From positions 1 through 49,003 of the forward strand of contig JAUCBJ010002603.1 of assembly GCA_032718475.1 (NCBI GenBank): DNA of 49,003 nt, given 5' to 3'. Positions 1-39,755 of this stretch are shown here, one piece after another (the first letter of the stretch is position 1; the number at the start of each line of letters is the position of its first letter). The position numbers and the translations under genes were made by a program. The stretch comes from Nemertoderma westbladi (taxonomy: Eukaryota > Animalia > Xenacoelomorpha). The notes beneath the pieces were generated by a model that was not told the origin of the DNA, did no database searches, and saw only the letters and a list, made by a program, of their open reading frames with translations.

Positions 1-1461
1 GCAGTCAGTCAGTTTAGTCGTACAGATTTTTGAAAACCTTGTTAGAACCCATAGAACAATCGAGAATTTTCTCGATTGATTGCAGCACAAATTTGCTATA
101 TAAAGGTGCGATTTGTTCATTAGTTATTACAACCTACTTCACAGATTATCTTATCAATATTCTGTCGTGCTTAGTTTATTCTCAGATTACATTGTATTAT
201 AATTGTATCTTCTGTAATAAAGTCAGAATATTCTCTCAGCTTTTCTATCTGTTTTACCATGGATTCACTACGGTGAACAAACTCAGGGACAGGATGGCCG
301 GCTAGAGATCGGGCCGCAGCAATGAACGGGAACATCACGGGAATGTAGACGAGAGACAACCCGCAATACCATCTAGAGTTATTCGCCCATCGCCTGAAAG
401 GTTAGACAGCGTTCGATCCTTGCTACCTAAGTATAAGACCAAAAGATCAAAAGGTAGACGTAGTGACACGCTGTAAGCCCAAAATTACATCATAGGGACT
501 GTACTGTCTTGATTCAGGAAAACCCACAGTAGACCTTCACATTCCTACGGGAGGGAGAGAGCGCAGGCCGATACTAGTACGCAGATAAGACGTAGGCACA
601 CCGGTACAAGGCATACACATTGGTTAGGGTGCAGCAAACTGTACGCTTAACTCTTGCTAAGTACAGGTGCGTCTGTGACTATTTGCCGTGCAACGGTGTC
701 CATTACATCAGAACTTGTAGGCTAGGGGGGTTGCTGTGTTTTCACCTGAATTAGGATTGTACCGTTCAGGCGGTAGGGCAGTTTACGTACTAGGCGCAAA
801 TAAATTGAGGCTATCAGGGATATACTAACATCTACCGTGTCCCCGCCAACGCCCTAATAGGAAGTTACCCGGACTACCTGGGTGACTAAAATTCTAGATA
901 GGAGCCAGGATAGCTATTAGTACCCGTACGCCTACAGTAGTAAACTAACACATCTCTTCTTAGTATCAGGGACCTGGTACCTAAAATTGCCGAATTCTGG
1001 GCGTAGTATTAACCTTATGCCTGAATTTGAGGAAGGAGGAAAACTGTTTTTGACCGTTCAGAATTAACACACGCGCGTTAGAATTATTTACACCTCGAAA
1101 TATATAAAATTAACTTTGTCCGTACTGTGCTTTGCCCGCTAGTTAGACATCTCCAAATATCTGCCTGCACCTAGCTAGCGTCTCTTCGCCCAACCATATA
1201 AATCACACCGCGGCAAAGTATACGAGCCCCTTAGTCCGTCAGTGAGTCAGCCTGATTTTAGGATTCGCTGCGCGGGATTTTTGTTTTATCGAAGTTTGTC
1301 TGCTCGTAGACTGTTTTCTGCCTCACCGGTTATAAGAGATCGATACTGCAATATATTCGCTTGCTTAGAGTTTACTGTTTTGGTGAGAAGGTCGGATTTA
1401 TGATTTGATTTACAAACTTTACAGTAGGATATTGCAGGTATTGTTACCGTCTCTTCCAATA
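1..1461 (+). repeat. 5' LTR (left-truncated by the window edge)
   Basis: 33-1461 matches 14375-15916 apart from a 113-bp indel and one substitution that I could see; identity ends at ...CTCTTCCAATA. Contains TATA-like boxes (97, 1197) and AATAAA (216, 799). Inclusion of 1-32 is inferred. Confidence 0.88.
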
Positions 1462-1480
1462 GTAGGAATGTGTTTTACTG
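1462..1480 (+). other. Non-tRNA primer-binding site candidate (self-priming)
   Basis: GTAGGAATGTG (1462-1472) immediately follows the LTR and is the exact reverse complement of CACATTCCTAC (538-548); there is no TGG-led tRNA PBS at this position. Confidence 0.7.
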
Positions 1481-2062
1481 AACTACGGTTCGGTAGGACT
1501 AAAGTTATTTGAAAATTTTGTATTTTGAGGTAAAAATTCGTATTTGATTAGCTAAGTGCTAATTTTTTGAAATAAAATTTGATTTGAACCGCGTGTAAAA
1601 TATTTTTGGAATTGAATACCGGTGTTTAAAAGGGTTTAAATACCATATTGTACCGGTACAAAATTTTCGTAAAGTAAAACCTAACTCTTTTGTTTTTCAG
1701 GATTCAGAACTCATTTCTAGACTGTAACGGGAGCAAGACCGTGTTTAGCAAGTTTGGGAGATAGATAACCCAACAACTTTGGTTGGGAAAATCGCGTTTC
1801 GTCCGCAACGTTAAAAACGGAAAGGTTCACGTTCGGTTTGTATCTGGGAATCTGTTTTTCTGGAGAATTATTGGAGTGGGTGAGTTCGAAAAGTTGCATA
1901 AATAAGTTAGGCATTACCGTATTAGTTAAAATTATTGTGGGTTCCACTGTCTCAAGTATTTATGCATTCCGTACGATTTCTTTGTTCATTGCTGAATTAG
2001 TCCGTATTATTGTATTTAATTTACCTTTTGATAACGCATATCGTTATCCGATTTATTTGTTA

Positions 2063-2185
2063 TAAAATTGGCCGCTAGGCTAACTTTATTATATACTTAT
2101 TCCGTGACATTTATTTGCTGTAAAATTGGCCGTTTAGGCTAATTTTATCCATCTGCTATAAAATCGGCCGGTAGGCTAATTTTAT
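2063..2185 (+). repeat. Three imperfect copies of TAAAATTGGCCG..TAGGCTAATTTTAT in the 5' leader
   Basis: Copies near 2063, 2120 and 2159. Confidence 0.75.
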
Positions 2186-3285
2186 AAGACTGTAATTAGT
2201 ACCGTTTAGATATAAATACGGTAAAACTCGATACTTTGACACTCACTTTACTTGACTTACAACTACCGAAATGAGTGACAAACAAGACTATACAAAGAAT
2301 ACACCTACCGACTATGACTCGTGTGACGCGGATAAGTCAGCAGCGGAAGGACAACAGGGGAAGACTCGCGAGCCTACCGAACCTACACCGTGTGCGTCAC
2401 CAGTACATCCAACGGGAGTACCGGATGCCGTAGTACGAGGCGACGGCAGGACCGAGGACTTTCTAACTGTTCCGCAACCTAGATACAGGGAAACGGACAT
2501 GGTAAGTTCAGCAGGAAGCCAGGAAAGTGTGGTTAGAAGCGTCGGAGGTTACATGGCGCATATAACCAGGAGTATTGGAGAAGGTCATCGCATATTAGAC
2601 GAGTTGACCGCTCCGATGTCTCGATTCGAGTTCTACACCCTCCAGGTTAGAGTGCAAACTAGAGTACACAAGTCCGTAGATAACCTAGCTAATTGGTCTA
2701 CAAGATCTAGCTAGACAGAGACAGGACATGGACACTCAACTTAGAATCCTCGAGAAACTAATGATCGCTAGAGAGAAACTGATTCAGTTTAAGTCGACGA
2801 TTAGGCAGATACAACAGGAACAAGCAGACCAGTTGCTAGGTGAGTCAGTTTCGGACGAATTATTACAGCCCGAGGAAGAACAGGAACTGTACCGACTGGA
2901 TGGACAATTGAAACATCTGACGGACCACTTACGTATGTGCGGCGAGGATGTCGGAGATTGGGAAACCGTGCCGGAATATACGAGGGAAACTTCACCCGTA
3001 CGAATCGAATCGGCACCGGGAATACTGGACCAATCGTTAGTGAGTATTCGCAGCGAAATTGGCGAGATAAGTATAGTGACGTCAGAAATTTCCAGACAGC
3101 AACAACAAGTGGATAGACAACAACGGGAAGCGGAGGAACAAGCTCAACTGTTGACGGCACAAGCAGCGGTACAAGAAGAAAAACTACGCGTTGCGGATGT
3201 TGCAAGAATCTCTCATCTGCGAGAACAAGCCGAGTTGGAAGCGGCTGAGATGGAAAGGTTGGAGCTAGAAATAGCACAGCGAACA

Positions 3286-3384
3286 GCGGCAGCTGAGTTA
3301 GCGCAACAAGCGGCAGCAGCTGAGTTAGAACGACAAGCGGCAGCAGCTGAGTTAGAATGACAAGCGGCAGCAGCTGAGTTGGAA
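3286..3384 (+). repeat. 27-bp coding tandem repeat (AAAELERQA-like, 4 copies)
   Basis: Units of GCAGCTGAGTTAGAACGACAAGCGGCA; one unit has CGA changed to TGA. Confidence 0.9.
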
Positions 3385-4064
3385 GAACACAAGCGAGTTT
3401 CGGAAGCAAGAGCTGAAATGAAAAAACGGCAAATAAAGGCTCAATCAGCGATAAGACAAGCGGAGCTCGAAGCGCAACAACGACAGACGGAACAACGCGA
3501 GAAGGAAGTTAAACTTCATTTCGAACTCGGGAAGAAGGCGAGAGAATTAGCCAACGCGAAGGAAGATCTGGATCTACAAGCCCGCGATCGATCGATGAGA
3601 TCTCGAGACGGACACGATCTAGACCAGTTAGAGGTAAGACACCGCCAAATTCAGGAACGGAAGAAGGAAGGAAGCGTAGGAGCACCCGGACGGGAACGAC
3701 AATTAGTAAAGGACTTGTGTCAACGATTCCCACAGGTAACTCATATGTTTGCACCGGTTACGACTAAGGAACCTGTTTCGATTGCTGGTAGTAGTAATAT
3801 TTCTCCTATCCATGGTGCGACGGAACACAGGTTTGTTATTCCGGACAAGTTTACACCGCCAAGAGCAACGTCGTCGCCTATTCCGAAAGTCAAGGTAAGT
3901 AACCCACCGATTACAGATCGTAGTAGTTTATTAGTCGAACCTGTACTACTGACGACGAAACAGGTGAGTCCACCGTCGACACCTAAACCCGTTACACACT
4001 ACGCTTACCCAATGACGTTTAGGCCAACAAGGCCAGTTGTTTCAAATGCTGTCATTCGCCCACC

Positions 4065-4213
4065 GATCAACCAGTTTACATCGCAATCTACGACTTCGAG
4101 GAAGACTTGTGAGCCTACCGAACAACGGACACTAGTGGATACGCGACTGATCAACCAGTTTACATCGCAATCTACGACTTCGAGGAAGACTTGTGAGCCT
4201 ACCGAACAACGGA
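4065..4213 (+). repeat. 84-bp-period coding duplication (INQFTSQSTTSRKTCEPTEQR, 2 copies)
   Basis: About 65 identical nt at 4065 and 4149. Confidence 0.92.
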
Positions 4214-7200
4214 GATCAGTGGACGATGTTCCGAAACGGAATGTTAGAATTCGAACGACGCAACGAACGCGAGCACGTCGACCACCATATCCAGATGATA
4301 GTAGTACTTCGAGCGAATCGGATTACCCGAAACGCGAAGTATTTAGAACAGGGGCGGCCGATGGATATAAACGCGAGCGTTCAGACAACTCCTTTGTAGA
4401 TAATCCTCCACAGAATACACCAACACAAAAGGCGTTACAACCAACAGACGCGATCAGTACCCAACAGTTCGCCGACATCATGCGACCAGTTGTCAACAAG
4501 TTGGCTCAGATCGAGGAGCGTCTGGAGGAAGTTCAAACCGATAGTTCGAGGAACACCGAATTCGAACACAATAGACACCCGAAGGAACCACAAAGACCGG
4601 TACCTTCAAACCCCACATCGTATCAGGGAAAAGCGCCAAGAAGGGAGAACATCAACCAGACTACCAACCAAGGACGCGAAACTCTGAACGTTGCAGAGGA
4701 GATAGCGAAATTCGCAGCCAGACAGGGATTGCCGGTACAACAACCACCGAAGTTCTCCGGTAGCTCAAAACACTGGCATACCTTCGTAGACTATATCGAA
4801 TCCCAGATCGCCGTGTGCGCCTTTACATCACGGGAGAAGTTCAATTACCTGCTCCAAACGTTGTCAGGAGAACCTAAACGTTTGGCAGAGACCTTCGTTG
4901 GTGTACCGGACGCTTTCGAACTAGCGTACGATCGTTTAACTTCGATATACGGAGGTACAGTGAGCATGGCCAGGTCAGTAATAGAGGAACTCTGTAAGGG
5001 AGGGGCTATCACTAAACCCGTCGACTTACTAAAACTAGCTGACGAGATCAAGAACGCTATCACTACCTTAAGATCAATTGGACAACTTGATTACGGGAAT
5101 ACCCCTACAGTCCTATTAAAGATCATAGGACGACTCCACCATCGACTTCGTCGGGAGTGGAGAAAGGTCGAATACCAGCGAGAGGAGCGAGGAGGATTCC
5201 TAAAATTAGAAGATGTGTACATTTTAATATCCAGGGAGGCGGTAGTAGAAACTCGATCTAACTACACCGACCAGCACATCGTGGCAGAAGGGATCACATT
5301 GCCATCCTCCAACCGACAAAAACCCCAGACAACATCCACTAAGACGGCCACTTACACCACACCGACGGAATTACGACAATTCTCGGACGGAGGTAGGGTA
5401 TCTGCGCCCATTGGGACAAAACAAACGAGACAGCAACTTGGTACCGACTTCAGTGGCTGCCAATACTGCGAGCATCTAGGTAAGCGGTATATCGGCCACA
5501 AGTTACGAGGTTGTCGACAATTTCGCGAGTTGAACTCGGAAGAACGACGGCTGCAAATACGGCCACTGGACTCTTGTTGGCAGTGTACGCGACACGGACA
5601 CGTGCGTAAGGATTGCCCAAATACTGACACTTGTCCATCCTGTGGACGCAACCACGACGGTCTGCTCCACACAGACAGCCACACGCCGACGAAACGCTTC
5701 GCCAGGGAACACCCGGAAGCAGCAGCGAGATGTGATGCGGCCTATAGAAAACGAGAATCAAAAACGACTCCAACCTTCGTGACCCATATTGAGGATTGCT
5801 TCTCAGAACAATCCGGATCGTCGGACGAAGAATCAGAAGACGACGACGAATATTCTAATGGAGACGAACAACCGTCGATCGCGCTTCTGACCACTGATCA
5901 ACTGAAGGGATTCAGTGTAATCCCGATTAAGGTTACTGGCACAAAGGGGAGCAAGAGGATCTATGCGATTCTAGATTCAGCCTCATCTCATAGCTACGTG
6001 GACGAAAAGATAGCTGACGTCGTGACGGATCTAAAACAAGGTAAGCACGTCAGTTATACAGTAAGTAGTATGCACGGACAGCGTGCAATACCAGTGACGC
6101 GAGTTAAGTTGGACTTAGACTCTCTTCTTCCAAAATCGCAACACAGCGAGAGGGAGAGGTCTTTGTTGCCCTTTAGAGATCTAACCTTTGCGGCCACGAA
6201 GGACTTTAGTAACCTACTAGGTCCAGTGCCGGAACAATCTCTAGAGGACCGTAAGTATTTCAGACACCTTGGTGTACCCGAATGTCCTGTCAATTATAGA
6301 TCGGTAGCAATGCTGATCGGGACGGACCAATTCAACCTACATCAGGTGTGGGAAACCAGACCATCGGCAGTTGTAGCGGGAAACGCATACGCCTGCAGAA
6401 CGCCGATAGGGTGGTATACTCGAGCGCCTGTGCGCACACTAGACGTAAGTGACGAGGAAGACGATGTACAGAGTACATGTAGTTTATTAACTACAAATTC
6501 AATTCATTCCTTTTCACACGACGTGAACCATACTACACTACAGTCGACAAAACATGACAGACGTGTAACTAGTATGATAAGTCACAAGGAGCAGCTAACC
6601 CACAAGGTGAGTTTAGAACTTGGGGGGAAGACGAGTCAGCTAGAGATTCCATCGACGACAGATGATAGGCTTGCGAGTCTACCTACCCCAATAACCTCAA
6701 CAGTGCCCGTCGATATCGATGATGACGCGTTGAGAAATCATCAGTTGGAACAAGCCACCTTGGACAAAGAATTAACGGAGAAGACTATCAGGTGGTTAGA
6801 ACAAGATACAGCTGAACCTGGTAGCTATGAACCTTGTATGTCGGAACAGGAGAAACAATCTCTGAAGATCATGGAAGATACTATCCACCAGACGAAAGAC
6901 GGACATTATGAGGTAGGGATGTTATGGCGTAGCCAAAGTCCTAAACTTATAAACAACTATCCACTGGCTTTAAGACGTCTACACTCAATCCGACAACGTC
7001 TATTAAAAGACGAGAAAGCCCATCTGCAGTATAACACTCAGATGGAGACGTATTTGACAAAGGGATACGCTATCCGAATGACTAACCCGGAGCGAGTGAC
7101 CGACCAAACGTATTACTTGCCACATCACTACGTGAGACACCCCGACAAACCAGACAAAGTACGTGTAGTCAATGACTGTGCGGCTCTGTTTGAGGGAATG

Positions 7201-10200
7201 TCCCTCAATAGTGAGTTGATGGATGGACCGAACATGAATAATTATCTTATGGGGGTGATTATGCGCTTCCGTCAGCGTCAAGTAGCTTTTACTTGTGACG
7301 TTGAAGCGATGTTTCACCAAGTAAAAGCGTTAGAGCGAGACAGAGACAGTTTGCGGTTCCTCTGGTACCCGGAAGGAGATTTAAGTCTACCACCGGCGAC
7401 TTACCAAATGCAAGTTCGCGTTTTCGGTGCCAGAGACAGCCCAAATTGTACGATGTACGCCCTAAAGCAGGCCGCTAGGGATCAGAAACATCTATATGAC
7501 CCAGAGATAATTAGAATTGTGGAGCGTGACTTTTACGTTGATGACGGATTACAGAGTTGCGACACAGTAGAACGTGCTACAACAGTAGCACATCAATTAC
7601 GGGACTGCTTGGCGGGCGGAGGTTTTAACCTCACCAAATTCGCCTCAAACAGTGCCGAATTAGTAGACTCATTCGGAACTACTGAGCGTGGAGGTGGTGA
7701 CATAGACCTAGAGTTCGAACCACTACCGACGACTAAGGTGTTGGGGCTCTTTTGGGACCCAAACACAGACAACTTTCGAGTGAAGGTGAGACTGGACAGT
7801 CAAGGGAACACACTGACAAAGAGATCATGCTTGTCAAAATTGAGCCGATTGTTCGATCCGTTAGGATTCATCAGTCCAGTGATACTGCAAGCCCGCATTT
7901 ATATGCGCAGTATATGGAAGGATGGACTAACATGGGACGAGCCGATCTCATCAGACCAAGTGGACTTATGGAAGACCTGGGAGGCGGAATTATCTTCGCT
8001 AGAGGATTATTCCATACCCAGGGTTTACTTTCCATTACAAAGTACATTTCCTGACAACTTGGAACTACACTGTTTTTCTGACGCCAGTGACAACGGTTTT
8101 GGTGTGGCAGCGTACTTGCGCAGACAAGTAGAATCAGACGAGTTCGATGTTTCGCTCATTACTTCTAAGGCTAAGACCATGCCTACTAAGTATATGACGA
8201 CACCACGAGCCGAGCTACAAGCCGCAACCCTGTCAACCACCATCGTGAACCTCATACAGACAGAACTACAGTCGAGTTTACAGATATTTTATTGGACTGA
8301 CGCGACGTTGGTTTTATTTTACATAAACAACGACACACTCGAATTCAAGACATTCGTAGCTAACCGTCGCGCGGAAATTCTAGACCGTTCAATAAAAGAG
8401 GATTGGCGACATTGTCCCGGACCACAAAACCCAGCTGATATTGCGTCGCGAGGAATGATGCCTGAGGAATTCTGTAAACCGGAGAACAAAGAATTTTGGC
8501 AACACGGACCCCAATTCTTGCAGAAATCGACACAAGATTGGCCTCCGTTATACGACAACAAGTCCAACACCATTCCCAAGGACGCCGAAATCAAGAAACC
8601 AAAAAAGGGAAAGACAAAGAAAAGGACGACGGCGGTAAAACTCAAGAAAAAACCGAAGGCGAAATGGAAAGATATAACTTCAAAGGTCAAGAGAGGAAGA
8701 CTTGCGAGCCTTTCTACACCAGACATATCGCCAGACGGTCAACCAGACATGTTACTAGACAGCCAACCAGACATTTTGCCAGACATATCACAAAATGTCC
8801 CACCAGACGCTAGTAACACACTGACAAACAGTAAAGCCGCAGTTTCCCTATTGGAGCGGCCTTGTATTGACAAACTACCAATTTTGACACACTTGAGCAA
8901 CCATAAGCACGGTGAAACCTCATGTATTACAGATGTGGGTAGTACCTACGCTAATGTAAATACAGGTGTTACTCTGCGCTCAAGAGACATACCGAACTTG
9001 CAACCTATGGTGAGACCTGGGATTAATGTCGGCAGAAAAATAAGTTTACCGAAACCTGCTGACCCCATAGAGTTCAAACCACCATTAACGATCGACTTAC
9101 AAAGTACTGACGATCAAGGTAAGAAGACAAAGAAGGACAAATTACTTGTAGACCCGGACGGATCAACAGTCAACAAGGGAATACTTACCGGCGGACCCGT
9201 GGGCCCTTCTAGTAATTCAAAACCTTCCAAAATCTCCATTGACTTACCTGATGACGTCACAAATACTTACGTCGACCGTATTGTAAACCTAACAGAATCT
9301 TGGACAAACGCTTGCCGAAAATTAGCGTGGATTGTACGTTTTGTACAATACGTTAAAGGCAAACGCGACTTTACACGTCGACTTACATTGACTGAGATTG
9401 ACAGGTGTGAGATTAAATTAATTCGCCATTATCAACTGCGATATTTCGCGCGCGAATTCACATCTATAAATCAAGGTCAACCAATCAAGTCGTCACCAAT
9501 ACTGAGTTGGAGTCCGATAATTTATAATGGCTTAATTTGTCATAAATCTCGGCTTCAAAACATTGACTTTAACACGAACTTTAGGTACCCAATAATAATA
9601 CCGCAACACCACGAACTACAACGTGCAATGATACTGGACGCACATCTACATCTGAAACACGCTGGAAGACACCACTGTCTTTCCTACTTACGTACTAGAT
9701 TTGTATTAATTAGACCCAGTAAAGCATTAAGTTCAGTGACACGTACGTGTATTATTTGTAAAAAGGTACATTCTAGAATAGGTACCCAAGAAATGAGTGA
9801 ACTACCACAAGCACGACTTCAAGCATTCAGACCACCTTTTACAGAGACTGGAATTGATTGCTTTGGTCCCATACATACGAAACGTGGACGTATACTAGTA
9901 AAACGCTGGGGACTGATTTTCACATGTATGTCCAGTAGGGCAGTTCACATTGAACGTGTGATGGATCTTTCCACCAACGCGTTTATACTAGCACTGCGGC
10001 GATTTATCGCTAGACGCGGACTAGTAAAATGCTTGTACTCAGACCAAGGGACAAACTTTGTTGGTGCTCGGAATGAGATTGCTAGAGCCTTTAAGAAATT
10101 AGATCATGATCAAATCTCGAACGAACTACAACCTCACAAGATTGTTTGGAAGTTCAATCCTCCAGATAGTCCTTGGAGAGGCGGAGTCTGGGAGAGATTG

Positions 10201-11487
10201 ATTAGATCTATAAAGACAGCCATGGCAAAGGTCATTCCAGTAAACCACATATTAACAGACGACCAACTGACAACATTGTTTGTTGAAATCGAGGCAATAC
10301 TAAATACTAGACCAATAGTATTAGTACCCGATGACAAACAATCCCAGTTTGCTTTAACACCGGCACACCTGCTTATGCAGGCACCGACGACATTGACACC
10401 TATTTCTATTCCAATAGAAAGCGACAGTTACGGTAGAAAAGCGTGGAAAATCACGCAACTACTGGCTAACAAATTCTGGGAAATATGGCAAAACCATTAT
10501 TTGCCCTCTATTTCTGCCAGAACAACTTGGTATAATAACACCCGCGCATTAAAGCCGGGAGATCACGTGCTGTTGGCAGAAGTGAATCTAAAAAGACGCT
10601 TCTGGATAACAGGTGTCATTTTAGCCACACATCCATCTATGGATGGAGTGACAAGAACTGTGACGGTACGGACAATTGACGGTCGAACAGTAGACAGACC
10701 GACTCAACGTCTCGTACTTCTTGAAGAGACTCGTAACGAGTCTGGAGACTACAAATCTCCACCTAATACTAGTAAATAATTAGGAGTTTACAAATAGATT
10801 TCCACGTACCTGTACACCGTAGTAAGGACAGCGGTAGAATTCCATTGTCTTTATATGTGAACATTGAGGGTGGTACCCTTACGTGTCACATAGGAGCGGG
10901 ATTTGTAGGTATAAGAAATGGAATTCTACTTGGAACTCACAATATTGAGACATTTTCGAAATTTTAGACAATCCATTTGGATTTGAAAAATTTTTAAAAA
11001 ATTTTCTCCAGTGAATAGATTTCAGGGTACAGTCGGGTGGAACTTAAAATTAGAAGAAACAAGAGAGGAAGACTTGCGAGCCTTTCTTAAAAAATTTTTT
11101 AATTAAATTTTACACGGTCTTGTTTCAATAAGTTACGTCAAAATAGACTCCCCTATATTTATTTACTAATTCTTGACTGCTTATTTTCTGATAATAGTTT
11201 GGGATCAAAAAGTGAGTATTTTAGACTCACAGCCAGTTTAGCCCAAATTCGTTTTTATTTCGGCAAAAATTTTAGATAAGAAGCAGCGTGTCATTAAAGA
11301 AACCTTAGATCTTAGGCTATGGGTAGGAGGTTAGAGCGTTGTCGAAGCCCAAAAGGCAGACGAAACTCTCACGTCTCCTCACAACTAACCACAAACTCTG
11401 TTGTATTCCCTCTAGTAGTAATGATTATGTAACTACACCTCTAATTATGGAGAAAGGGATACAAGGAGAGCCGAGATGGGGATATGA

Positions 11488-13149
11488 TATCCAAGAGGAA
11501 GCGGCAGCTTCATTCGAACGATTTGGAGCAAAGGACTACACTATATTTGGTATAAAGGAATTATCAGAAAGTACAGCGAAGCTCGCAAAGACAGCAATGC
11601 CTTTACTCGAGCAGGATTTAGTATATTTCGAGACGTGTATCTTCGCTGTGCGGGATCTCTTATCGAAAGACCATCTATGTTTACATTGTTACCCTATGAA
11701 GGAGAACGTATCGTGGAGATTATGGATGAATCACGGCAGACGCGCGCGCCTATCGGTCACCTTGGTGATGAATTCGAAGTAACTACTACGATCGCCGACG
11801 ATCCTTTAGAGGAACTTCTTGAGATAGAAAGGAACCTCCCGAAGAAATCTCAGACGGAGATTCGACAACTTGAAGCAACAGATGCTATAGTTTGTATACA
11901 ACCTTCAGAAACCTACCAACCCATAGACCCAGATGATTACGATTATAGTATGGGAGGAAGCGCTCGACCGATTGGAGATCTTATATACGAACGAGTGTGG
12001 TACCCTGCCAATACGATGTGTAGTAAATGTGGCGTCGCTGGACATCATATGGCAAAGTGCAGTGGAAAGCACATTACTACGACTCAGCTAATCTGTGGAT
12101 GGTGTGGGGATCAAGGGTCTCATACCTTTTATACTTGCTGGAGATTTATGGCCCAATGTACTTATTGCAATATAAAGGGACATCGAGCATCTGAATGCCA
12201 ACTAAGAGACATACCTTATGAACACGAATCTGTAAAACTCGTGAGGAAGTTATTTGATGAGTGGGAAGATTTAGCCGACGAACATGTATCGGCACAAAGA
12301 AGACGGTTTCCGATGAGAGCGCATCTCGGATTTTGGGCGGTAAATCCTCAGACGATGATGTCGGAAGGATATATCTCCGCTATGCCCCAATATGACGAAC
12401 TTATCGAGGTTGTCGATATTTTGCCCCACGACAGCGGATTCCGAGTGGTGCGCGAGTATCTGTTACAAATTCACCCGGATAACAAAAACACGTGGAATTT
12501 TCAGAAAGTCGTTAATCGGATTACGTATGGTGAATTCGATCGTTTCCGAACTGAAAAGCGGAACAAGGGAGCTTGGTTAACCGTCGCATGGGCGTACCGA
12601 GCCGCGTTTTACCATAAACGTATACGAGCGAGCGTATTCGAGGAAGAGGAGGTCCTAGAGGCGACGAATATACCAGCCACTCCGGTTGCGCCGTCTGCAC
12701 GTCACCCTCGGGAGGACGGGCAGGGTAGGATCATACGGGTCCAGAAAGTGGGCCAACAGTTAAAGAAAATTATTAATGTAGAAGAACGCAAGGGAGTTGA
12801 GCCGACTATTCGAGTTACTCGGGATACGGTATCACTTCCAAGAGAACCAGTAGGAGGATCGGGACATACACCAGCTGATCAACAGGGGGCGCAAGCTACT
12901 CTTGGGTCTGCGTCGTCCACTTCTCGCGTGTTCCCAGACGTTTTACCAACTGTAGTGACAACTGATCGGTCACGAGGAATCGGTCGAGGTTTTGGGATGC
13001 CAAATAGACGAATTTGCGAGGAAATAGTCGCACCGTCTCTCAACGTCCCAAGTAAACCAGTGACTCGCCCCATTAGTCCCATATCGCGAGCAAAGTCACC
13101 TGTGCGCAGTTTTCGAGGACGCGGCAGGGCTCGATCAACTAAGCGATAA
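11488..13149 (+). CDS. Accessory ORF of the BEL element: triple CCHC zinc-knuckle protein with RG-rich tail (start uncertain)
   Basis: Frame is open from 11488 with first ATG at 11677; an overlapping ORF starts at ATG 11447 in another frame. Knuckles CSKCGVAGHHMAKC, CGWCGDQGSHTFYTC, CTYCNIKGHRASEC at 12019-12198; C-terminal RGIGRG and RGRGRAR. Confidence 0.85.
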   Translation, partial: YPRGSGSFIRTIWSKGLHYIWYKGIIRKYSEARKDSNAFTRAGFSIFRDVYLRCAGSLIERPSMFTLLPYEGERIVEIMDESRQTRAPIGHLGDEFEVTTTIADDPLEELLEIERNLPKKSQTEIRQLEATDAIVCIQPSETYQPIDPDDYDYSMGGSARPIGDLIYERVWYPANTMCSKCGVAGHHMAKCSGKHITTTQLICGWCGDQGSHTFYTCWRFMAQCTYCNIKGHRASECQLRDIPYEHESVKLVRKLFDEWEDLADEHVSAQRRRFPMRAHLGFWAVNPQTMMSEGYISAMPQYDELIEVVDILPHDSGFRVVREYLLQIHPDNKNTWNFQKVVNRITYGEFDRFRTEKRNKGAWLTVAWAYRAAFYHKRIRASVFEEEEVLEATNIPATPVAPSARHPREDGQGRIIRVQKVGQQLKKIINVEERKGVEPTIRVTRDTVSLPREPVGGSGHTPADQQGAQATLGSASSTSRVFPDVLPTVVTTDRSRGIGRGFGMPNRRICEEIVAPSLNVPSKPVTRPISPISRAKSPVRSFRGRGRARSTKR

Positions 13150-13267
13150 AAGGGAGGGCAAGGGTGGACGGAAGACTCGTGGGCCTTTCTTATGATTTTG
13201 TGATTTATTTTGAATTATATGTTTTATGTTTAGAAAATTTAGTAAAACTTATATTTTATATTTGTGC

Positions 13268-13800
13268 TTATTCCGAACTTATGCAATTTGTATTGTTCCG
13301 AATTTATGAAATTTAGAGAGTTTATATTTAGAAGGAACTTATATTTGAAAGATTTATGTTTCATATTTGAAGATGCAAAGGAGTTTATATTATTCTAAAC
13401 TTATGCAGTTTATATCTATATTTAGTAAGACTTATATTTGTAAGAATTTATATTTTATATTTGTGATTATTCCGAACTTATGCAATTTATATTATTCCGA
13501 ACTTATGCAATTTATATTGTTCCGAATATTATGCAATTTATATTTTATAAGCAGTATTTGTATTTACAGTGAAATAGAAAGTTTATAGATAGAAAATTTT
13601 GTGCTCAGAAAGACTCATATTTGTAATTATTCCAAACTTATGCAATCTACATTTAGGTACGAAAGTATTTGTAATTACTTGAATTTATGCAATATTTGAG
13701 ATGCAATAGTAGATGGAAGACTCGCGAGCCTTTCTTATTGTTTTCATTTATTTGTATTTGTAATTGTTTGAATTTATGCAATATTGAAATGCAATAGATT
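13268..13800 (+). repeat. Array of about 25-bp AT-rich units with core (TTCCG)AACTTATGCAAT
   Basis: About nine imperfect copies, e.g. near 13270, 13295, 13392, 13469, 13494, 13519, 13629, 13680 and 13770. Confidence 0.8.
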
Positions 13801-13901
13801 TATATTGGTGAATTTAATTTAGATTTATATTGTACTTACTTAGTAAAGCCTTAAATACGTAAAGTTTGAATTTGTAATTATTTTGTATCGAATCATTACG
13901 T

Positions 13902-13911
13902 AGAAAGGAAG
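13902..13911 (+). other. Polypurine tract candidate AGAAAGGAAG (alternative: 13148-13164 AAAAGGGAGGGCAAGGG)
   Basis: Directly followed by TATTG, the inverted complement of the LTR end CAATA. Confidence 0.5.
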
Positions 13912-15916
13912 TATTGTTTGAAATTTAATTGTAAATATGTAAGTACGCCCTAAGTATTCTATAGTTTGATTGATTATTGGTGAAAACCGTATATTTTATG
14001 CACGATAATATCCTGTTTTCATGGAGCGGTATAGAATTATATTCCCTAAATGCCGTGGATTTTCAAAATTTTATTTTATTCGAATTAACTTTGTAAAGAT
14101 TGCTTTGAGTTCTCATTAGTATTGGTTCTATCTATTGTACATCTATCGGTCAAGTGGTTCAGTAGCTCAGTTGGTAGAGCGTTGGAAATTATATGTGTAG
14201 TAGGTATTGAGTTCGAATCCTAGTAAGTGCGTATTATTTTTTGTGCAGAATTTCAACTCATTTAAATTAACCGCTACAAATTAATTGCATTTGTCTGTAC
14301 CAATGAGACTGTAGTTATTTGATTGTAACCAATGTCGTGCAAGTTATATATTAGCTGGACCAATAGCTATCTTTAAAACCTTGTTAGAACCCATAGAACA
14401 ATCGAGAATTTTCTCGATTGATTGCAGCACAAATTTGCTATATAAAGGTGCGATTTGTTCATTAGTTATTACAACCTACTTCACAGATTATCTTATCAAT
14501 ATTCTGTCGTGCTTAGTTTATTCTCAGATTACATTGTATTATAATTGTATCTTCTGTAATAAAGTCAGAATATTCTCTCAGCTTTTCTATCTGTTTTACC
14601 ATGGATTCACTACGGTGAACAAACTCAGGGACAGGATGGCCGGCTAGAGATCGGGCCGCAGCAATGAACGGGAACATCACGGGAATGTAGACGAGAGACA
14701 ACCCGCAATACCATCTAGAGTTATTCGCCCATCGCCTGAAAGGTTAGACAGCGTTCGATCCTTGCTACCTAAGTATAAGACCAAAAGATCAAAAGGTAGA
14801 CGTAGTGACACGCTGTAAGCCCAAAATTACATCATAGGGACTGTACTGTCTTGATTCAGGAAAACCCACAGTAGACCTTCACATTCCTACGGGAGGGAGA
14901 GAGCGCAGGCCGATACTAGTACGCAGATAAGACGTAGGCACACCGGTACAAGGCATACACATTGGTTAGGGTGCAGCAAACTGTACGCTTAACTCTTGCT
15001 AAGTACAGGTGCGTCTGTGACTATTTGCCGTGCAACGGTGTCCATTACATCAGAACTTGTAGGCTAGGGGGGTTGCTGTGTTTTCACCTGAATTAGGATT
15101 GTACCGTTCAGGCGGTAGGGCAGTTTACGTACTAGGCGCAAATAAATTGAGGCTATCAGGGATATACTAACATCTACCGTGTCCCCGCCAACGCCCTAAT
15201 AGGAAGTTACCCGGACTACCTGGGTGACTAAAATTCTAGATAGGAGCCAGGATAGCTATTAGTACCCGTACGCCTACAGTAGTAAACTAACACATCTCTT
15301 CTTAGTATCAGGGACCTGGTACCTAAAATTGCCGAATTCTGGGCGTAGTATTAACCTTATGCCTGAATTTGAGTCCTGGAAATACGCAAGAGGGGAAGGA
15401 ACCTTATCATTCGTGAGTATTGGACCTACAAGTTATAAAATTAGAATATTCGTAAAATGCACACCGTACCCAGTAATTATATATGTGAAGGAGCAAAACT
15501 GTTTTTGACCGTTCAGAATTAACACACGCGCGTTAGAATTATTTACACCTCGAAATATATAAAATTAACTTTGTCCGTACTGTGCTTTGCCCGCTAGTTA
15601 GACATCTCCAAATATCTGCCTGCACCTAGCTAGCGTCTCTTCGCCCAACCATATAAATCACACCGCGGCAAAGTATACGAGCCCCTTAGTCCGTCAGTGA
15701 GTCAGCCTGATTTTAGGATTCGCTGCGCGGGATTTTTGTTTTATCGAAGTTTGTCTGCTCGTAGACTGTTTTCTGCCTCACCGGTTATAAGAGATCGATA
15801 CTGCAATATATTCGCTTGCTTAGAGTTTACTGTTTTGGTGAGAAGGTCGGATTTATGATTTGATTTACAAACTTTACAGTAGGATATTGCAGGTATTGTT
15901 ACCGTCTCTTCCAATA
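13912..15916 (+). repeat. 3' LTR (start inferred; demonstrable identity 14375-15916)
   Basis: Direct repeat of 33-1461 with an extra 113 bp at 15374-15486. Start inferred from the PPT and TATTG...CAATA termini. Confidence 0.8.
14156..14242 (+). promoter_or_regulatory. tRNA-derived Pol III cassette (A box, B box, T6 terminator); not a functional tRNA
   Basis: TAGCTCAGTTGGTAGAGC (14163-14180, intact D arm), GAGTTCGAATCC (14209-14220), TTTTTT (14237-14242). Acceptor and anticodon stems do not pair. Confidence 0.75.
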
Positions 15917-16686
15917 ATTATCTTATTTTTCTTTTTCCGCAAGGAAAAAAAATCAATACTCTTATGGATTACTTTTTTCATTTTCATTATTCATTTCCTC
16001 ACGATTTTGGGGTATAAAAGTTTTTAAAAATGTTCTGGAAAAATAGTTTTTTCAACTGTTGACAGCAACTTGTTGGTGGACTCCTTCACACACAGAAAGT
16101 TTTGTTGCGAATTGTTTCTGAGTGTATCAAATCAACATATTGTTGACCCCCTTGCAAGGAGCAATTTTAGTTGCAGAAAAAAATTGCAGAAACGAAAGTT
16201 GCTCCGCGTGAGGAAAACCTGAAATAATATTAAAATTATATTATATCTTCAGTGTGTATTATAATGATAATGATAATATTTGGAATGTCGCGGTGCGATA
16301 TAATGTTGGGAAATATCGGGCGATTTGGTAGTGCGAAATTAATTCCCTACAAAATAAATAATATAAATTTTAAATTAGTATTATTATTTTATTTTATATT
16401 TTTATGTGGAATTGATATGATAATATTAAATTTCCCATTGATGTTTGTTTCAGAATTATAATAGTTGCACATTTTGATTAGATAGCAACTTTTAACTTTG
16501 TTTGTTTTCATAAAAAATTATACTTAAATGATGCTCGGTTTTAGTAAAAAAATAAAATGTTATTCTCAAATTGCTACTTTTTCGCCCGTGTCTACCTCAA
16601 AATCAAGATGAAAAGGGAGTAGAAAAGAAAATGTAACACATATTATAGCATTGATTTTACTCTTTTCGGAGTAATAATAACTAATT

Positions 16687-16824: not shown

Positions 16825-16858
16825 GTTGTTTTACTGATTACTTAACAAGATGTATATA

Positions 16859-17730
16859 CACCATGAACCGTAATATAGTGTCATTTTCTGATGACACGGA
16901 CCCCCCCCCCCCCCCCCAGATTTTTCTACAAATCTTTATCATATTGCTTAAAATTTGAAACATAAACTCGTTCCACTCACCGTCGATAACCCAATGAAGC
17001 CGGAATTTTCGATTTTGACTTCCGTATCGTGGACATACTTCACATTAGTCGTAATTTTTTCATATCAATAGAAAGCTTGAGTTGCAAGGATTCGAAATAT
17101 GTAACAATATCTGAATTTCGTTGAGAAACAACTGAGATACAGGAGTTCAAAGATTGCAAGAAGTATTGTTCGCTGCAGGCCATTTATTCTATTAAATAAA
17201 TACACAAAATTCTAGAATGTGTTATTTATTTTATAAGTTGGTTGGCAACAGCGGTATTCCTCTATACAATATATCTATTGTGTAGCTATTCATTCTTAAA
17301 CAAATTGTTCCAGAACATCGTGTATTTATTAAATAGGAATAAATGGCCTCCCGCGAACGATAATTCTTGCAATCTTTGAACTCCTATATCTCAGTTGTTT
17401 CTCAACGAAATTCAGATATTGTTACATATTTGTAATCCTTGCAACGCAAGCTTTTTAATGATATTACTTATAATTAATTACGAATAATGTGAAGAATGAC
17501 CACGATACGGAGGGTGCGATTTCGCAAAAGATACTTAAATACGCTTATAAAAAAATTTAAAGTCAAAAATCGAAAACTCCGGCTTCATAGTAACAACGAC
17601 GGTGAGTTCAACTAGTTATGTTTCAAATTTTAAGCAATATGATAAAGATTTGTAGAAAAATCTGGGGGGGGGGGGGGGGGGGGGGGGTCCGTGTCATCAG
17701 AAAATGGACACTATATTACGGGACATGATG
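16859..17730. mobile_element. Palindromic MITE with TA target duplication (Tc1/mariner-type)
   Basis: Inverted arms of about 360 bp including poly-C/poly-G tracts; TA at 16857-16858 and 17731-17732. Confidence 0.85.
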
Positions 17731-17740
17731 TATGTAGGAC

Positions 17741-20700
17741 ATGTATTCTTTTTGCCTCATTGAAACATCTGTAGCTGAAACGCACTACAACCTCCTTCAA
17801 CTATATCCCAATACTTCAACAAACGATTCATTCCCGGTCGCGCTTATTAAGTTGGTTGCGGAGCCATTAGCGCGTCACTTAACGTACTTAATAAACTTAG
17901 CTGTTACTACAGGTGAATTCCCTGCTAGTTTGAAGATGTCTAAGGTTATTGCAAGCTACAAAGGGGGTGACCCTCTTGATGCCAATAACTACCGGCCCAT
18001 ATCCATTTTGCCTGTGTTCACAAAATTGTACGAAAAAATAATCTACGACCAGCTTATTTCTTACCTGGATCACTTTTCAATTCTCACCAAATGCCAGTTT
18101 GGATTTCGAAAGAAAGTTTCAACTTACTGCGCTATTTTAATTGTGACTGAGAAAATTCGTACTTTTCTTGATTCGAAAGAAACCAGCTGCGCGATATACA
18201 TTGACCTGAAAAAGGCGTTTGATGCGCAGGACCACAGTATATTAATTAAAAAACTCAAAAATTATGGTATTCGTGGAACTCCTAATGCGTTAATAAAAAG
18301 CTTTCTAACCGAACGTAAGCAGGTCGTAGTGATAAATGATTACAATTTCTGACCCACTATCTTTAACCCTATTAGTACCGGGCTATAAAATGTTGTACAA
18401 ATACCGGGGGGGGGGGGGGGTCATATTGACCCCCCCCCCCCCCCCCCTCTAAAATCTACAAATATTTACGAAAACGTCTGATTTTTTGTTTGTACGTAGG
18501 TATCACTTGTCTGGATCCGACCGAAAAAAAAAATTTTCGAAAAAATGTACTGGGGTGGTTATATTGCAGCACCAAAATTACAAGTAGTGCACAATTTTCA
18601 CAAAATTTGAAAGTTACATTTTCGGCTAATTATTTTTCAATACAGGTTTTTTGGGGTGCATAATACATTGGAAAATATTTAAAAATGATATGATTACTAT
18701 AAATGGCTGTTTAGTCCTCTCTGCGTAGGAAAAAAATGAAAAAAACAAGTAACCAGCACTTTTCAGTTAGAACTCAAAATTTTTAATTCACTTATACGAT
18801 GCTATAAATTTACATTTTCAGGTTTTCGAGGGCGCTGATTCTAATGTAATACATTTCTAATATGCCAGATCATTGCTACTTGTATTTTTCGGCGTAATTT
18901 GGCAAATTTTGGTGCTAGCACCAAATTTCGTACCCATCACCAAAAAGTACAAGTTTGCGATGTCCAGTGCTGTTTTTATTGATTCCATCGGATTCAGGAC
19001 CCTCATAAACCCGTATAACGCAAGAAACAAGGTGATACTATCTACTTATCAATTTGCATATTTTCCAAAATTTGGTGCTGGCACAACAATTTTCACCCAC
19101 CGGCGAAAAATACAAGTTTGAGAACTCTTATGAAATTTTTACTGATTCCATTGAATTCAGAACCATCACAAACCCGTATAACGCAAGAAACAAGGTGACA
19201 CAATCAATTGATATATTTGATGGTTTTCAAAATTTGGTGCTAGCACCACATTTTGCACCCACATCCGAAAAATACAAGTTTGAGATGTCTAGTTCGATAA
19301 TTATATTTTCCATTGAATTCAGAACAGCCATAAACCTCTAAAACGCAAGAAATAAATTGTCACAAGCAATTTTATATATTGAATGGATTTTCAAAATTTC
19401 GTGCTAGCACCAAAATTTGCACACAGCACCGAAAAATACAAGTTTGATACGCTTGGTGCAACTTCGTATATATTTCATCGAATCCAGAACCCCAAAAAAC
19501 CCCAATTGCGTAAAAAACAAGTTTCAAACAATCAATTTACAAAATTGACTTATTTCAAAATTTGGTGCTGGCACCAAAATTTGGCACCCATCGAAAAAAA
19601 CAAGTTTGAAATTTCTAAATCAATTTATATGAATTCCATCCAATTTCTAACACCAAAAAACCGGTGTAAATCAAAAATAGAGATGTTACAATTCATATTT
19701 AATGAAATGTAATTTTCAAAAAACGTCTCAAAAAAAGTGCCAAAAGTAGGGTTAAAAAATGGTGCTATAACTCGAAAAGTACCCAATATTTTTGAAAACG
19801 GTTTTCACTACCATGAAGACAATAGATTTTTAGGAAAAGTCATAAAATTTCAGATTCCCAACTGCGTTTGTTTCAGAATTATAATAAAAAAACCACGGGG
19901 GGGGGTCATATTGACCCCCCCCCCCCCCGGGTTTAATAGGGTTAAAATGTGGTACTGTACAAGGATCCGTGTTATCTCCGTTATTATTTTTACTATATAT
20001 AAATGACCTGCCGTTAGTATCCAAATTTATGACAACCCTTTTTGCAGATGACACCACCTTGCTGCATAACGATTCCAATATTGAATTATTAATTGAATCT
20101 TCAAATAGTGAACTCAAAAAAATATATGAATGGCTGGCCGACAATCGACTGTCTCTGAACTTAAAAAAAACCGAGTACTCAATTTTTACGAACAAAAATT
20201 ATTTCCTAGATGGCCTACCCAAAGTTAAAATTAAAGACAATATTATAAAGAAAGTAGAGTGTACAAAGTTTTTAGGTGTCTGGATAGATGATAAGCTTAA
20301 CTGGAAAATACACATTGGGCATATTTTAAAGAAAATTAGTAAAAGCACTGGGATATTTTATAAATTACGACATATTTTTCCGACAGACATACTTCGTACA
20401 CTTTACTTCACACTGATCCATCCATACTTAACATATGGAATTTTGGCTTGGGGTTCGGCATGTAAGAGCGATTTAATGAAAATTAAAACCAAAACTAATA
20501 AAATTATCCGTGCTATCACTTTTAGCCATTTCCGCCAAACAGCTTATCCCCTATATAAAACAATGAATATACTACCTTTGGAGTCACTACCGGTATATGT
20601 CTATCATGTTTCCCAACTATTGCTAGACATATCACATAACCCCTCACACCCTCTCTCGCACCTTTTTACAAAATGTTCTGCCATGCACCGATATAGTACC

Positions 20701-21396
20701 CGTGCGGCTTTGACAGGAAAATATGTTATTCCCCTAACCCGTTTAGAAGTAGCTCACAAATCGATCGGAGTAATAGGACCGACTATCTGGAATGATCTCC
20801 CAACTGACATTAGAGCAATAAAATCAAAAGCCATATTTTTAAAGCACCTTAAGAAATATTTACTCGATAAACTCTGATTAAGTTTTTTTGCTTATGAATC
20901 ACTCAAGTTAATACATGTAGTAACTACAAATCTATTTTATTAAACAAATACAGCACTCCCATATCTGTTTACTTTCATTAACCAGGTGGAAATTATTAAG
21001 CTTTAACAAATGTATATGAATATATAAATTACTCTAGATACAAATTATATTCTACAATAAAAACTACTACAAAGCAGAGTATTACGCATATATGGTAAAT
21101 TTTCATAATATATTCTTAACTTATATGTCTTAGAATAATTGTGCAATTTATTTCTTTGTGATACACTTTGCCCTCTTTGTACAACAGATGACCTTGACTA
21201 GCATTACGCTACTGCCAGCTGTTGTACGACAAATTATTTAGCATAAAGGTGCAGCGCAACCAAACATATGTATGTAGTAGGCCTACAAACGTAGTGTATA
21301 ATTATAATATGAAAGCTCTGTTTTGGTGGTGGCTGCAGGTTTATGCCGTTATATGTATTGAATCTTATATTATAATAATAAATTGAATTGAATTGT
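17741..21396 (+). mobile_element. 5'-truncated CR1/L2-group LINE, split by a piggyBac-type insertion
   Basis: NYRPISIL, QFGFR, DLKKAFD in 17741-18352. After removing the insert it reads LSLKCGTVQGSVLSPLLFLLYINDL..LFADDT (to 20877). 3' end AATAAA followed by (TTGAA)n. Confidence 0.92.
18367..19941. mobile_element. Non-autonomous piggyBac element
   Basis: TTAA on both sides (18363-18366, 19942-19945); CCCTATTA...TAATAGGG termini; subterminal Gn-TCATATTGA-Cn palindromes; internal tandem units of about 164 bp; excision restores the LINE RT sequence. Confidence 0.93.
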
Positions 21397-24582: not shown

Positions 24583-24692
24583 ATAAATTGATAAATAAAA
24601 ATCAATAATTGATCAATCAATCAATAAATTTTGCTCAAAAATGTTTTTTTACTTGAAATTCAAATTCTACATAAAAATTTAAGTCAGAATAT

Positions 24693-26163
24693 GTGGCTGG
24701 TTGCGAGAAAAGGGACCTGGGGAAAAAATTTTCATTCTGAGAAAAACGCGTTTAAAGTTTGGCTCTTAAAATCGACTGTTTTCATTGGTTTATTGGTCGT
24801 TATTGGGGTGTTTGCATTGGTTTATTGGTCGTTATTGGGGTGTTTGCATTGGTTTATTGGTCGTTATTGGGTTTTATTAGAGCGAAATTCAAACTGAATT
24901 ATTTTAATAATAGTACTAAGTACTGTATACACTTGTTTTTTTAGATTATCGTAGAATATCTGTAGCCTATTCGGTTAGTAATTGTACAAACAAGTTAATA
25001 CACTAATAATTTAGAATTTATTATGGAAACTGAAGCAGAGTGGCTGAACCTATTAAATAATAGGGTTTTCAGGTCGCTGATCACGATAAAACTTGTTAAA
25101 ATATTTTTTGAAAAAGCAACCATAATTTTTTGTGGTATTTGGGTCCCCCAGTATGAAAAGTACAAGTAAAAAAATCTCAAAATAAAAAAATTTGTGTTTG
25201 ATTTGCTAATGCTGAACGTACGTGTTTTCGAGGTCGCTGATTACGATGAAATTAGTTATAAATATTCCTAGTAATGCAAACCCAATTTTGGTGCTATTCT
25301 AGTGCCCCAGAACGAAAATTACAAGTTGCACAAACTTATAAACTGTCAAATTATGCCTTTGGTTTGGTAATGCTGCTTCTATACTGGTTTTCAAGGTAGC
25401 TGATCACGATACAACACGTTACAAATCATTCGTGGTAACGCAACTGTCAATTTTGGTGCTTGTCTGGTGGGACGAAAATTACAAGTAGCAAACATTTCAA
25501 ATTGCAAAAAGCGAATTTGGTTGGATAATACGATATTTTTTAGTGTCATATTCGTGATCAGTGTCCCAGAACACCCATAATGTCCAAAATTCAGGTTGAT
25601 TTGGTAATGATTTTTGGTTATCAAACTTTTGCTACTTGTATTTTTCGTGCCGCACATTGACACATATCGAAAAAATTGTTTTAATTCGTGATCAGCATTC
25701 CAAAAAAACCATATGTTCATAAAATCAATTAAATTTTGTGGTGATTTTTCATTATCATATTTGCACTACGATTTTTTTCGTGCCCCATGGACCGCATTAA
25801 AATTACCAAAAATTTTCTAGAATGTTATATTTGAGTTCAATATTTGTGATCATTGTCCAAAAAAAAACGCTATAGCGCAAATATATTAATCTTAGTGAAT
25901 TATAAAAACATTTGAAAATTTTAGCACGAAAAATACCTGAGATGGATGCCAGAAATGGACCACATCAAAAAATTAACATTGGTTGCGAGAAAAGGGACCT
26001 GCGTTTTTAATTTTTTGTTTAAACACTCATAACTTTTTAACGAAAAGCGATATGAAAAAACTAGTTCGATATTCGGAAAGCCCACAAAATTCTGCATCTA
26101 ATAGGCCTAAAAACGCAAATTCGACCATGTGGTCCCCAGGTCCCTTTTCTCGCAACCAGCCAC
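24693..26163. mobile_element. Non-autonomous TIR element with ATAT flanks (Sola1-like; superfamily tentative)
   Basis: 31-bp TIR GTGGCTGGTTGCGAGAAAAGGGACCTGGGGA; ATAT on both sides; partial internal TIR copy at 25980. Confidence 0.75.
24783..24872 (+). repeat. 32-bp tandem repeat, about 3 copies (CATTGGTTTATTGGTCGTTATTGGGGTGTTTG)
   Basis: Directly visible in the sequence. Confidence 0.92.
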
Positions 26164-26398
26164 ATATGTAAAAATTATTTTTAATTATGAACTATTGTAC
26201 AAATCAATTATTTAATAAATAAATTGATCAAAATCAATAACTAATTTGAAAAAAATTAAAAATCATCCAGAAATTCGGAATCTACAGATAATTTTGTGTA
26301 AGAAAAGTAAAATGGACATTTCTGAATAAAACTTTCAATTTTTCAAATTTTACGGAGCATTGGCCCACACTTATTTTAAAGCACTGGGCTGGAAAGGG

Positions 26399-34840: not shown

Positions 34841-35027
34841 TATCTGGTATAGGCCTAATTTCAATATCCGCTCAGGCCATATACATTATTTATAAATTAA
34901 CACAAAATTAATAATTTCGGTAGGCTAAATCAAAATGTAAAAGGTGAAGAATATTAATAAATAAATACAGTAACAAGTTCTCCTAAACAATTACGCATAC
35001 TTCGATGATGACGCTTGATGGAACATA

Positions 35028-39216: not shown

Positions 39217-39755
39217 ACAACACGAAGTGGGGACTTCGCGCAGCACGAAGTTGGCAGAGCCTTAGCGAATTGACACTGTTAGGGGGTAGGTCAATTTATG
39301 CAAATAGTCACGTTGGCCCTCTAGCGGCAGACTGGAGAACTGCAGATGGATTCGCCTCCTTTGAAAGTCACAGCTAATGGTCTAATACATATCTGCCAAG
39401 TTTCAGCTTAAACGGATTAAAAGCAAAGAAATGGGAGGGCATTTAATGTTTAGACATGTGGCCCTCTAGCGGGAGACCATTGCACTGATGGTGTCTGAAA
39501 GTCTCTCAAAAATCTCAACTTTTGCTCATATTGTTACCTACAAATTTTCAACTTGGCAGCTTTAAATCCGACAAAGTTATTAGCATGTCAAAATCGTAAC
39601 GACGACGACGACGACAACGACGACGACGACAACGACGACGACGACAACGACGACGACGACAACTATTTGCATAAATTGACCCACCCCCTAACAGTGTCAA
39701 TTCGCTAAGGCTCCGCCAACTTCGTGGCTCGCCCCACGATCTATGCATGGCCCCA
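39217..39755. mobile_element. Helentron-associated (HINE/DINE-1-like) non-autonomous element
   Basis: Terminal hairpin CGAAGT-GGGG-ACTTCG; subterminal inverted repeats of about 64 bp (39245-39309, 39662-39725); (ACG)n microsatellite at 39599-39661; AAATTTTCA/AAGTTTCA core blocks. Confidence 0.68.

Follow-up and report, generated by a model that had tools for sequence, protein, structure and literature searches.

A BEL/Pao retrotransposon of Nemertoderma westbladi with a primer-binding site complementary to its own long terminal repeat, a possible case of self-primed reverse transcription

The element and its coding content

The window, i.e. the whole stretch of 49,003 nucleotides that was analysed (contig JAUCBJ010002603.1 of assembly GCA_032718475.1, Nemertoderma westbladi), carries at its left end an LTR retrotransposon of at least 15.9 kb, the features of which are listed in Table 1. 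The initial annotation had assigned the element to the BEL/Pao group, and this identity is borne out by Pao-type Gag and Pol domains in Pfam (Peptidase_A17, E 2e-42; DUF1759, E 7e-11; DUF5641, E 3e-20; all past cut-off) and by the domain order PR-RT-RH-IN, with DSAS at residue 872 of the 2472-aa frame, YVDD at 1392, the A17 region at 1486-1647, HHCC at 2084-2138 and the core motifs at 2166-2279. PF05380 is carried by all of the 240 homologues among the matches listed. The nearest relatives in the RT are 43-44% identical, and as none of the 240 matches listed exceeds 44% local identity, the element represents an isolated BEL/Pao lineage of an animal. For the extra 553-aa frame downstream of pol no homologue was found; it is not env-like by Pfam, and the matches were zinc-knuckle look-alikes, all below 0.9. 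On positions 1-2400 there are 4320 overlapping contigs in run X1 and 1661 in run X3, and the family is therefore high-copy and polymorphic.

The element contains seven copies of a 20-nt motif (2359, 4100, 4184, 8695, 11067, 13170, 13715), four of them in coding frames; the remainder of the window has none. Its 8-nt core exists in four variants, each of which is fully self-complementary if G-U pairs are counted, and on these sequence properties the motif is a candidate RNA dimerisation or packaging signal. The remainder of the window holds an uninterrupted amidase frame of 533 aa on the reverse strand (33284-34885, Pfam E 2e-109), two RVT_1-matching frames (19915-20877 and 28772-30238) that are probably non-LTR elements, MITE-like or DNA-transposon-like inverted-repeat elements (16853-17736, 24689-26167, 26399-27373 and 39244-39726), and 163-nt tandem arrays (18897-19611 and 25063-25497). 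An Rfam search of 1-16500 gave one chance-level match and no ribozyme match, and viral contigs scanned by protein, by alignment and by DNA pattern yielded no locus.

Table 1. Features of the BEL/Pao element, in order of position in the window
Feature	Position	Strand	Remarks
5' LTR, visible part	33..1461	+	direct repeat; probably truncated on the left
TATA box, main promoter	97..104	+	
First AATAAA	216..221	+	
GT..AG intron containing both primer and PBS, splice donor 401	401..1700	+	joint 400 to 1701; donor/acceptor consensus
Initiator-like word, candidate second start	537..543	+	YYANWYY match; A+1 at 539
Candidate self-primer	538..548	+	3' LTR copy at 14880-14890
Possible R arm of R-U5 stem	553..560	+	within purine run 549-561
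Second AATAAA	799..804	+	putative use; required as poly(A) signal for the R region if self-priming occurs at 548
Possible U5 arm of R-U5 stem	1450..1457	+	
Primer-binding site (PBS), without TGG	1462..1472	+	complementary to 538-548
12-bp hairpin, cUACGg tetraloop, adjoining PBS	1472..1499	+	z -4.2; 0/1000 shuffles
N-terminal gag region	2271..3360	+	frame change near 2690-2714; in-frame stop 3358-3360
gag-pol frame, open, 2472 aa	3361..10779	+	DUF1759, zinc knuckles, PR, RT (YVDD), Pao A17/RNase H region, integrase, DUF5641
Extra 553-aa frame after pol	11488..13149	+	three CCHC-type knuckles
Candidate polypurine tract, then TG	13148..13166	+	putative; possible true LTR start 13165
tRNA-like A-box/B-box cassette	14163..14223	+	Rfam tRNA 12.2 bits vs cut-off 29
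Three CCAAT boxes	14300..14364	+	30-nt spacing; upstream of visible 3' repeat start
3' repeat copy	14375..15916	+	includes 113 nt (15374-15486) lacking in 5' copy

Terminal repeats and element ends

Between the two repeat copies there is one substitution and one indel, of 113 nt; the longer form is present also in runs X4 and X5. Repeat identity stops at 1461 and 15916, the former being the boundary that had been read earlier. At the visible left end there is neither a polypurine tract nor a TG nor a target-site duplication, and the flanks overlap at 33-36. In X5, one contig covers 1-36 and then diverges, and a contig that extends upstream of the 3' repeat start by 255 nt or more has a depth of 5.8, which is like that of the LTR (5.6-6.4) and not like that of the interior (3.0-3.3). 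The 5' LTR has therefore probably lost its left part, which would account for the missing target-site duplication. The segment 13148-14374, with its PPT-like tract and TG, AT-rich tandem repeats, the tRNA-like cassette and the three CCAAT boxes, is probably the U3 that has been lost from the 5' copy, and judging from these letters the true LTR may begin at the tract and TG at 13148-13166, so that an LTR of at least 1.4 kb would possibly measure 2.75 kb. ARAGORN reported no tRNA anywhere in the window, the cassette included. The four visible right junctions all lie at 1460-1461, 2-3 nt past a CA, which may reflect either a non-CA end or a preference for targets starting with AT; the PBS is thus offset from the LTR end by 0 nt, or by 3 nt should the CA at 1457-1458 be the LTR end.

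Complementarity between LTR and PBS

The 11 nt that directly follow the repeat (1462-1472) are the perfect reverse complement of 538-548, as the initial annotation claimed, and this complementarity is real and well beyond chance. It is longest exactly at the boundary, with 11 nt from 1462 versus 6 nt from 1461; by composition, an 11-nt complement in the LTR is expected at 3.4e-4, and such a complement anywhere in the LTR is found for 3 of 12,800 internal positions. The duplex formed by 1447-1482 amounts to -37.1 kcal/mol, an energy that is reached by none of 60 random internal 36-mers (best -34.5), and in a null comparison for this duplex one in 300 reached its length and one in 300 its energy. 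With a length of at least 10 bp and a start 0-5 nt after the LTR, the match has the properties by which self-primers have been recognised in silico, as far as the accessible part of PMC6317226 describes them. A primer assembled at a splice junction was dropped as unneeded, because the match is contiguous. The first TGG past the repeat is at 1607; thus the 3' end (CCA) of a tRNA cannot bind at the repeat end, and the earlier statement that a TGG tRNA PBS is missing there holds.

Predicted RNA structure around primer and PBS

In a two-strand fold, a 10-bp primer duplex (539-548) directly adjoins the 1472-1499 hairpin. The hairpin occupies 1474-1480 with a probability of 0.85 versus 0.14 for pairing with 527-533, and this extension of the duplex, which had been proposed earlier and can indeed be drawn, was rejected in favour of the hairpin and is probably not formed. 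Similarly, the proposed R-U5 stem 553-560:1450-1457 can be drawn with 8 bp including one G-U, and so can the 4x4 internal loop between it and the primer duplex, but in global partition-function folds that keep the primer duplex the stem reaches only 0.02, because both arms pair at 1315-1339. Stems of at least 8 bp with the same U5 piece are available at 27 of 1367 LTR positions. Many copies carry the purine block at the R arm displaced by two positions; as the variant table reads, it could still pair.

The pairing of primer and PBS depends on where the RNA starts. In folds from 520 or 538 it is close to 1.0 and in folds from 125, 401, 440, 480 or 500 it is 0, values that come from RNA folds at the 1-kb scale, which are unreliable, and that as a modelled hint fit an RNA with a short start. 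The leader holds three cUACGg hairpins, at 268 (5-bp stem), 545 (4 bp) and 1483 (12 bp), of which the second shares bases with the 3' end of the primer.

Promoters, splicing and poly(A) signals

The transcription signals that the initial annotation had named, the initiator-like word at 537-543 and the AATAAA at 799, are both present, but that picture had overlooked the TATA box, the AATAAA at 216, the three CCAAT boxes and the splice donor at 401. There are 11 YYANWYY sites in 1429 nt, so an initiator A at most one base from the primer 5' end has a chance of about 2%; no TATA box lies ahead of 539. The joint from 400 to 1701, placed at 398-1699 with a cut of +2, is found in run X4 only, in one contig with a depth of 250 and a short side of 25 nt, and two further X4 contigs leave the element at 400. 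The label of X4 ('DNA?') is a guess, and all run data are contigs, which cannot show RNA starts; we infer that X4 is RNA or holds spliced copies. These contigs suggest that some transcripts begin upstream of about 375 and lose both primer and PBS by splicing.

An RNA spliced from 400 to 1701 has lost primer and PBS and hence does not begin with the primer. A strictly Tf1-like arrangement, in which the primer is formed by the first 11 nt of the transcript, is compatible with the initiator A at 539 and with the folds, but the main promoter lies about 410 nt upstream and the splice joint indicates starts further upstream. Self-priming thus calls for a second start close to 538-539 or else for an internal cut. 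Furthermore, self-priming at 548 needs polyadenylation downstream of 549, and the AATAAA at 216 must thus be skipped; otherwise it would end the RNA ahead of any usable R region, which is an argument against self-priming.

Variation among copies and putative dead-end products

In 421 contigs from three runs, the region 1405-1545 shows one substitution at a frequency of at least 1% and no indel. This sole listed variant is at 1485 (1.3% in X1) and falls on the N that is left free in the UNCG loop; the PBS itself has no variant at 1% or above. The 63-70 variants per run at 5% or more in 1-2400 predict 3-4 in 1405-1545, which gives a Poisson p of 0.02-0.06 per run, with runs that are not independent; the conservation is suggestive only, because the filter ignores differences near contig ends. 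For 538-548, invariance refers to the dominant X4 contig alone, in which six differences all lie outside this stretch (two gaps unplaced; 40 of 101 variants listed).

In X3, two contigs, apparently of one locus, leave the element directly after 1472/1473 (among the 20 of 27 loose ends listed). Since about half of the Tf1 cDNAs keep a full copy of the PBS at their 3' end, as reported in the accessible part of PMC11042837, this end fits by analogy a cDNA that would have kept an 11-nt primer copy; a deletion would look alike. Among the joints and loose ends listed, none leads from the PBS at 1472 into the complement of 537 and upstream. X1, X3 and X4 contain a variant at 1450-1469 in which a short tandem duplication takes in the LTR end, the initial 8 PBS letters and 7 others; in some contigs the full PBS follows. 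It looks like an aberrant plus-strand transfer that has become incorporated in the LTR.

Distant relatives

Of 75 metagenome loci, 52 were checked for repeats and 22 had one. Four of these were left out as 21-nt or whole-element duplications, and of the 18 examined another eleven were left out, ten with a 3' copy ending at the contig end and one that was fragmented, so that seven were tested. Four of the seven end cleanly in CA. A 10-nt self-complement was found in none of these four; one has a TGG at +5 that resembles a tRNA-Tyr end given in the accessible part of the supplement of PMC13524379, and the other three also lack a near TGG. Another relative (L040) has a 12-nt self-complement (50-61 and 165-176) just past the shared repeat end, which was matched by 0 of 200 nulls, with an uncertain boundary. 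The seven thus comprise one tRNA-Tyr-like site, one 12-nt self-complement with uncertain boundary, and five loci with neither. With 34-46% RT identity these relatives are too distant, and therefore they neither support nor refute self-priming.

Is reverse transcription self-primed?

The best explanation for the 11-nt match at a repeat end without TGG is that minus-strand synthesis is primed by the element's own RNA (538/539-548) and not by a tRNA, and we give this reading a probability of roughly 65%. This upholds in part the self-priming proposed in the initial annotation, the strictly Tf1-like form being conjectural. The initiator A beside the primer 5' end and the modelled primer:PBS folds from 520 and 538 fit self-priming, and the near-invariance of 1405-1545 and the X3 contigs that leave after 1472/1473 are suggestive of it. 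Against it, the transcript evidence (one X4 contig and two loose ends) suggests that the start is upstream of about 375, and the X3 contigs that end at 1472 stem apparently from one locus and may reflect a deletion.

As to the form that self-priming takes, a short primer from a second, unspliced transcript that starts at the initiator at 539 is tentatively favoured. The unspliced genomic RNA would start at 538-539, and its first letters (538/539-548) would fold onto 1462-1471/1472 and stack on the 1472-1499 hairpin; the element's RNase H, by analogy with Tf1, would then cut after 548 and free a primer of 10-11 nt. The RT would copy from 1461 back to 549 and jump to the 3' LTR, for which polyadenylation downstream of 549 would be required, e.g. 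after the AATAAA at 799. The upstream CCAAT/TATA promoter would give rise to the spliced mRNA without primer and PBS, which would serve translation only. It is conceivable, if a good deal more speculative than self-priming as such, that self-priming has arisen independently in BEL/Pao and that the life cycle is split between two LTR promoters, a CCAAT/TATA promoter for mRNA only and, 410 nt downstream, a TATA-less initiator for the packaged genome, the first 10-11 nt of which would be the primer, docked on the UNCG hairpin.

The primer could also derive from a long transcript, with a single start near 120-130 and a cut after 548, such that the 420-nt 5' fragment or the 3' LTR copy of 538-548 primes. 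This form, which takes its share of the probability given to self-priming, has in its favour that the sole well-formed promoter is the upstream one, that the spliced joint departs from 400, and that there is no TATA ahead of 539. It is rather improbable nevertheless, as folds from 125, 440, 480 and 500 bury the primer with 717-725, and no joint or listed loose end runs on past 1472 into sequence complementary to 537 and the letters upstream of it. Nor does a poly(A) signal stand 10-35 nt ahead of 548, which tells against this form too; a primer made at a poly(A) site was rejected because there is no signal before 548.

A host tRNA fragment or another small RNA that primes at 1462-1472 is unlikely. 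The LTR would then have R at about 125-240 and a U5 of 1.2 kb, and the pairing with 538-548 would be a switch that hides the PBS. The TATA box, initiator-like words near 117-130 and the AATAAA at 216 do have the ordinary U3-R-U5 layout, tRNA halves prime some Copia lineages according to the accessible parts of PMC6317226 and PMC10886601, and an invariant PBS is expected whatever the primer. However, a tRNA 3' end is excluded by the missing TGG, and the self-match coincides exactly with the first 11 nt, a length that is known for a self-primer from the accessible part of PMC7175516. The tRNA-like cassette of the element was rejected as a primer, as it has no 11-nt match to the PBS, and searches of published supplements for matching tRNA fragments, which had no positive control for whole tRNA sequences, found none.

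Marginally less likely still is that the true primer binds elsewhere and that the pairing arose by chance or has a role in the splicing, packaging or translational control of the 1.3-kb intron, in which both partners lie and which belongs to a leader with other selected-looking structures (the three cUACGg hairpins), since the duplex starts at the first base past the repeat end, where a primer must end, and no other primer site is visible.

Significance and comparison with known systems

To our knowledge, self-priming has been proven for Tf1 alone; for relatives of Tf1 and for one plant Copia lineage it is a prediction. If true, the BEL case places self-priming in all three LTR superfamilies and argues that self-primers made by RNase H are easily evolved. 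A switch of promoter and splicing that sets priming-competent RNA apart from mRNA would constitute a new point of control. The very high copy number of the family makes it possible to mine dead-end cDNAs and RNA ends directly. Annotation tools with tRNA-PBS filters miss such elements.

Self-priming in BEL/Pao was not found in the titles and abstracts listed, a search whose coverage ended short of Repbase Reports, GyDB, subscription journals and bioRxiv supplements. The words primer, PBS and tRNA do not occur in PMC3118150, nor PBS and tRNA in PMC554778, and the accessible parts of PMC3601003, PMC12440569, PMC10886601 and PMC13524379 hold no statement on BEL self-priming. A Troyka-like structure is not supported by the published description, as far as it is accessible.

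In Tf1, the RNA's initial 11 bases anneal to the PBS and RNase H cleaves between bases 11 and 12 (accessible part of PMC7175516), the same self-priming has been proposed for Tj1 (likewise, PMC4600332), and in Tf2 alternative starts lead to priming-competent and priming-incompetent RNAs (likewise, PMC5341516). Like Tf1, Tf2 and Tj1, as far as the sources describe these members of the Tf1/sushi group of Ty3/gypsy chromoviruses, the element has, beside the 5' LTR, an 11-nt PBS with complementarity to its own LTR, a possible R-U5 stem, and cDNA ends that perhaps keep a PBS copy. Membership in that group goes with a Ty3/gypsy chromovirus Pol, whereas the Pol found here is of the BEL/Pao type and thus of another superfamily. 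Moreover, the primer of Tf1 is the first 11 nt of the RNA, whereas here the main promoter is about 410 nt upstream of it, primer and PBS share an intron and are separated by a loop of about 910 nt, and a UNCG hairpin adjoins the PBS.

The same type of complementarity has led to the prediction of self-priming in the plant Copia TAR lineage (Houba, Osr-1) and in Tcn1, and independent origins have therefore been proposed already (accessible part of PMC6317226); these are Copia or chromovirus elements of plants and fungi, not BEL/Pao. With the Helenus and Cassandra TRIMs, in the description accessible from PMC10886601, the element shares a tRNA-like A/B-box cassette, perhaps within the LTR, but TRIMs are short, non-coding and primed by host tRNA, and here the cassette is weak (12.2 bits) and its place in the LTR putative.

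The ICTV profile of the Belpaoviridae (PMC8742986) gives an 18-nt PBS for tRNA-Arg/Gly, LTRs of 0.2-1.2 kb and genomes of 4.2-10 kb, and describes replication as tRNA-primed and 'poorly understood'. The element agrees with this family in its gag-pol, the PR-RT-RH-IN order, the Pao-specific domains and the long direct terminal repeats, and differs in having no PBS for a tRNA end, an LTR of at least 1.4 kb, a total length of at least 15.9 kb and an extra zinc-knuckle frame. By its Pol, it is filed as a BEL/Pao lineage that departs from the ICTV profile in the trait of the tRNA PBS.
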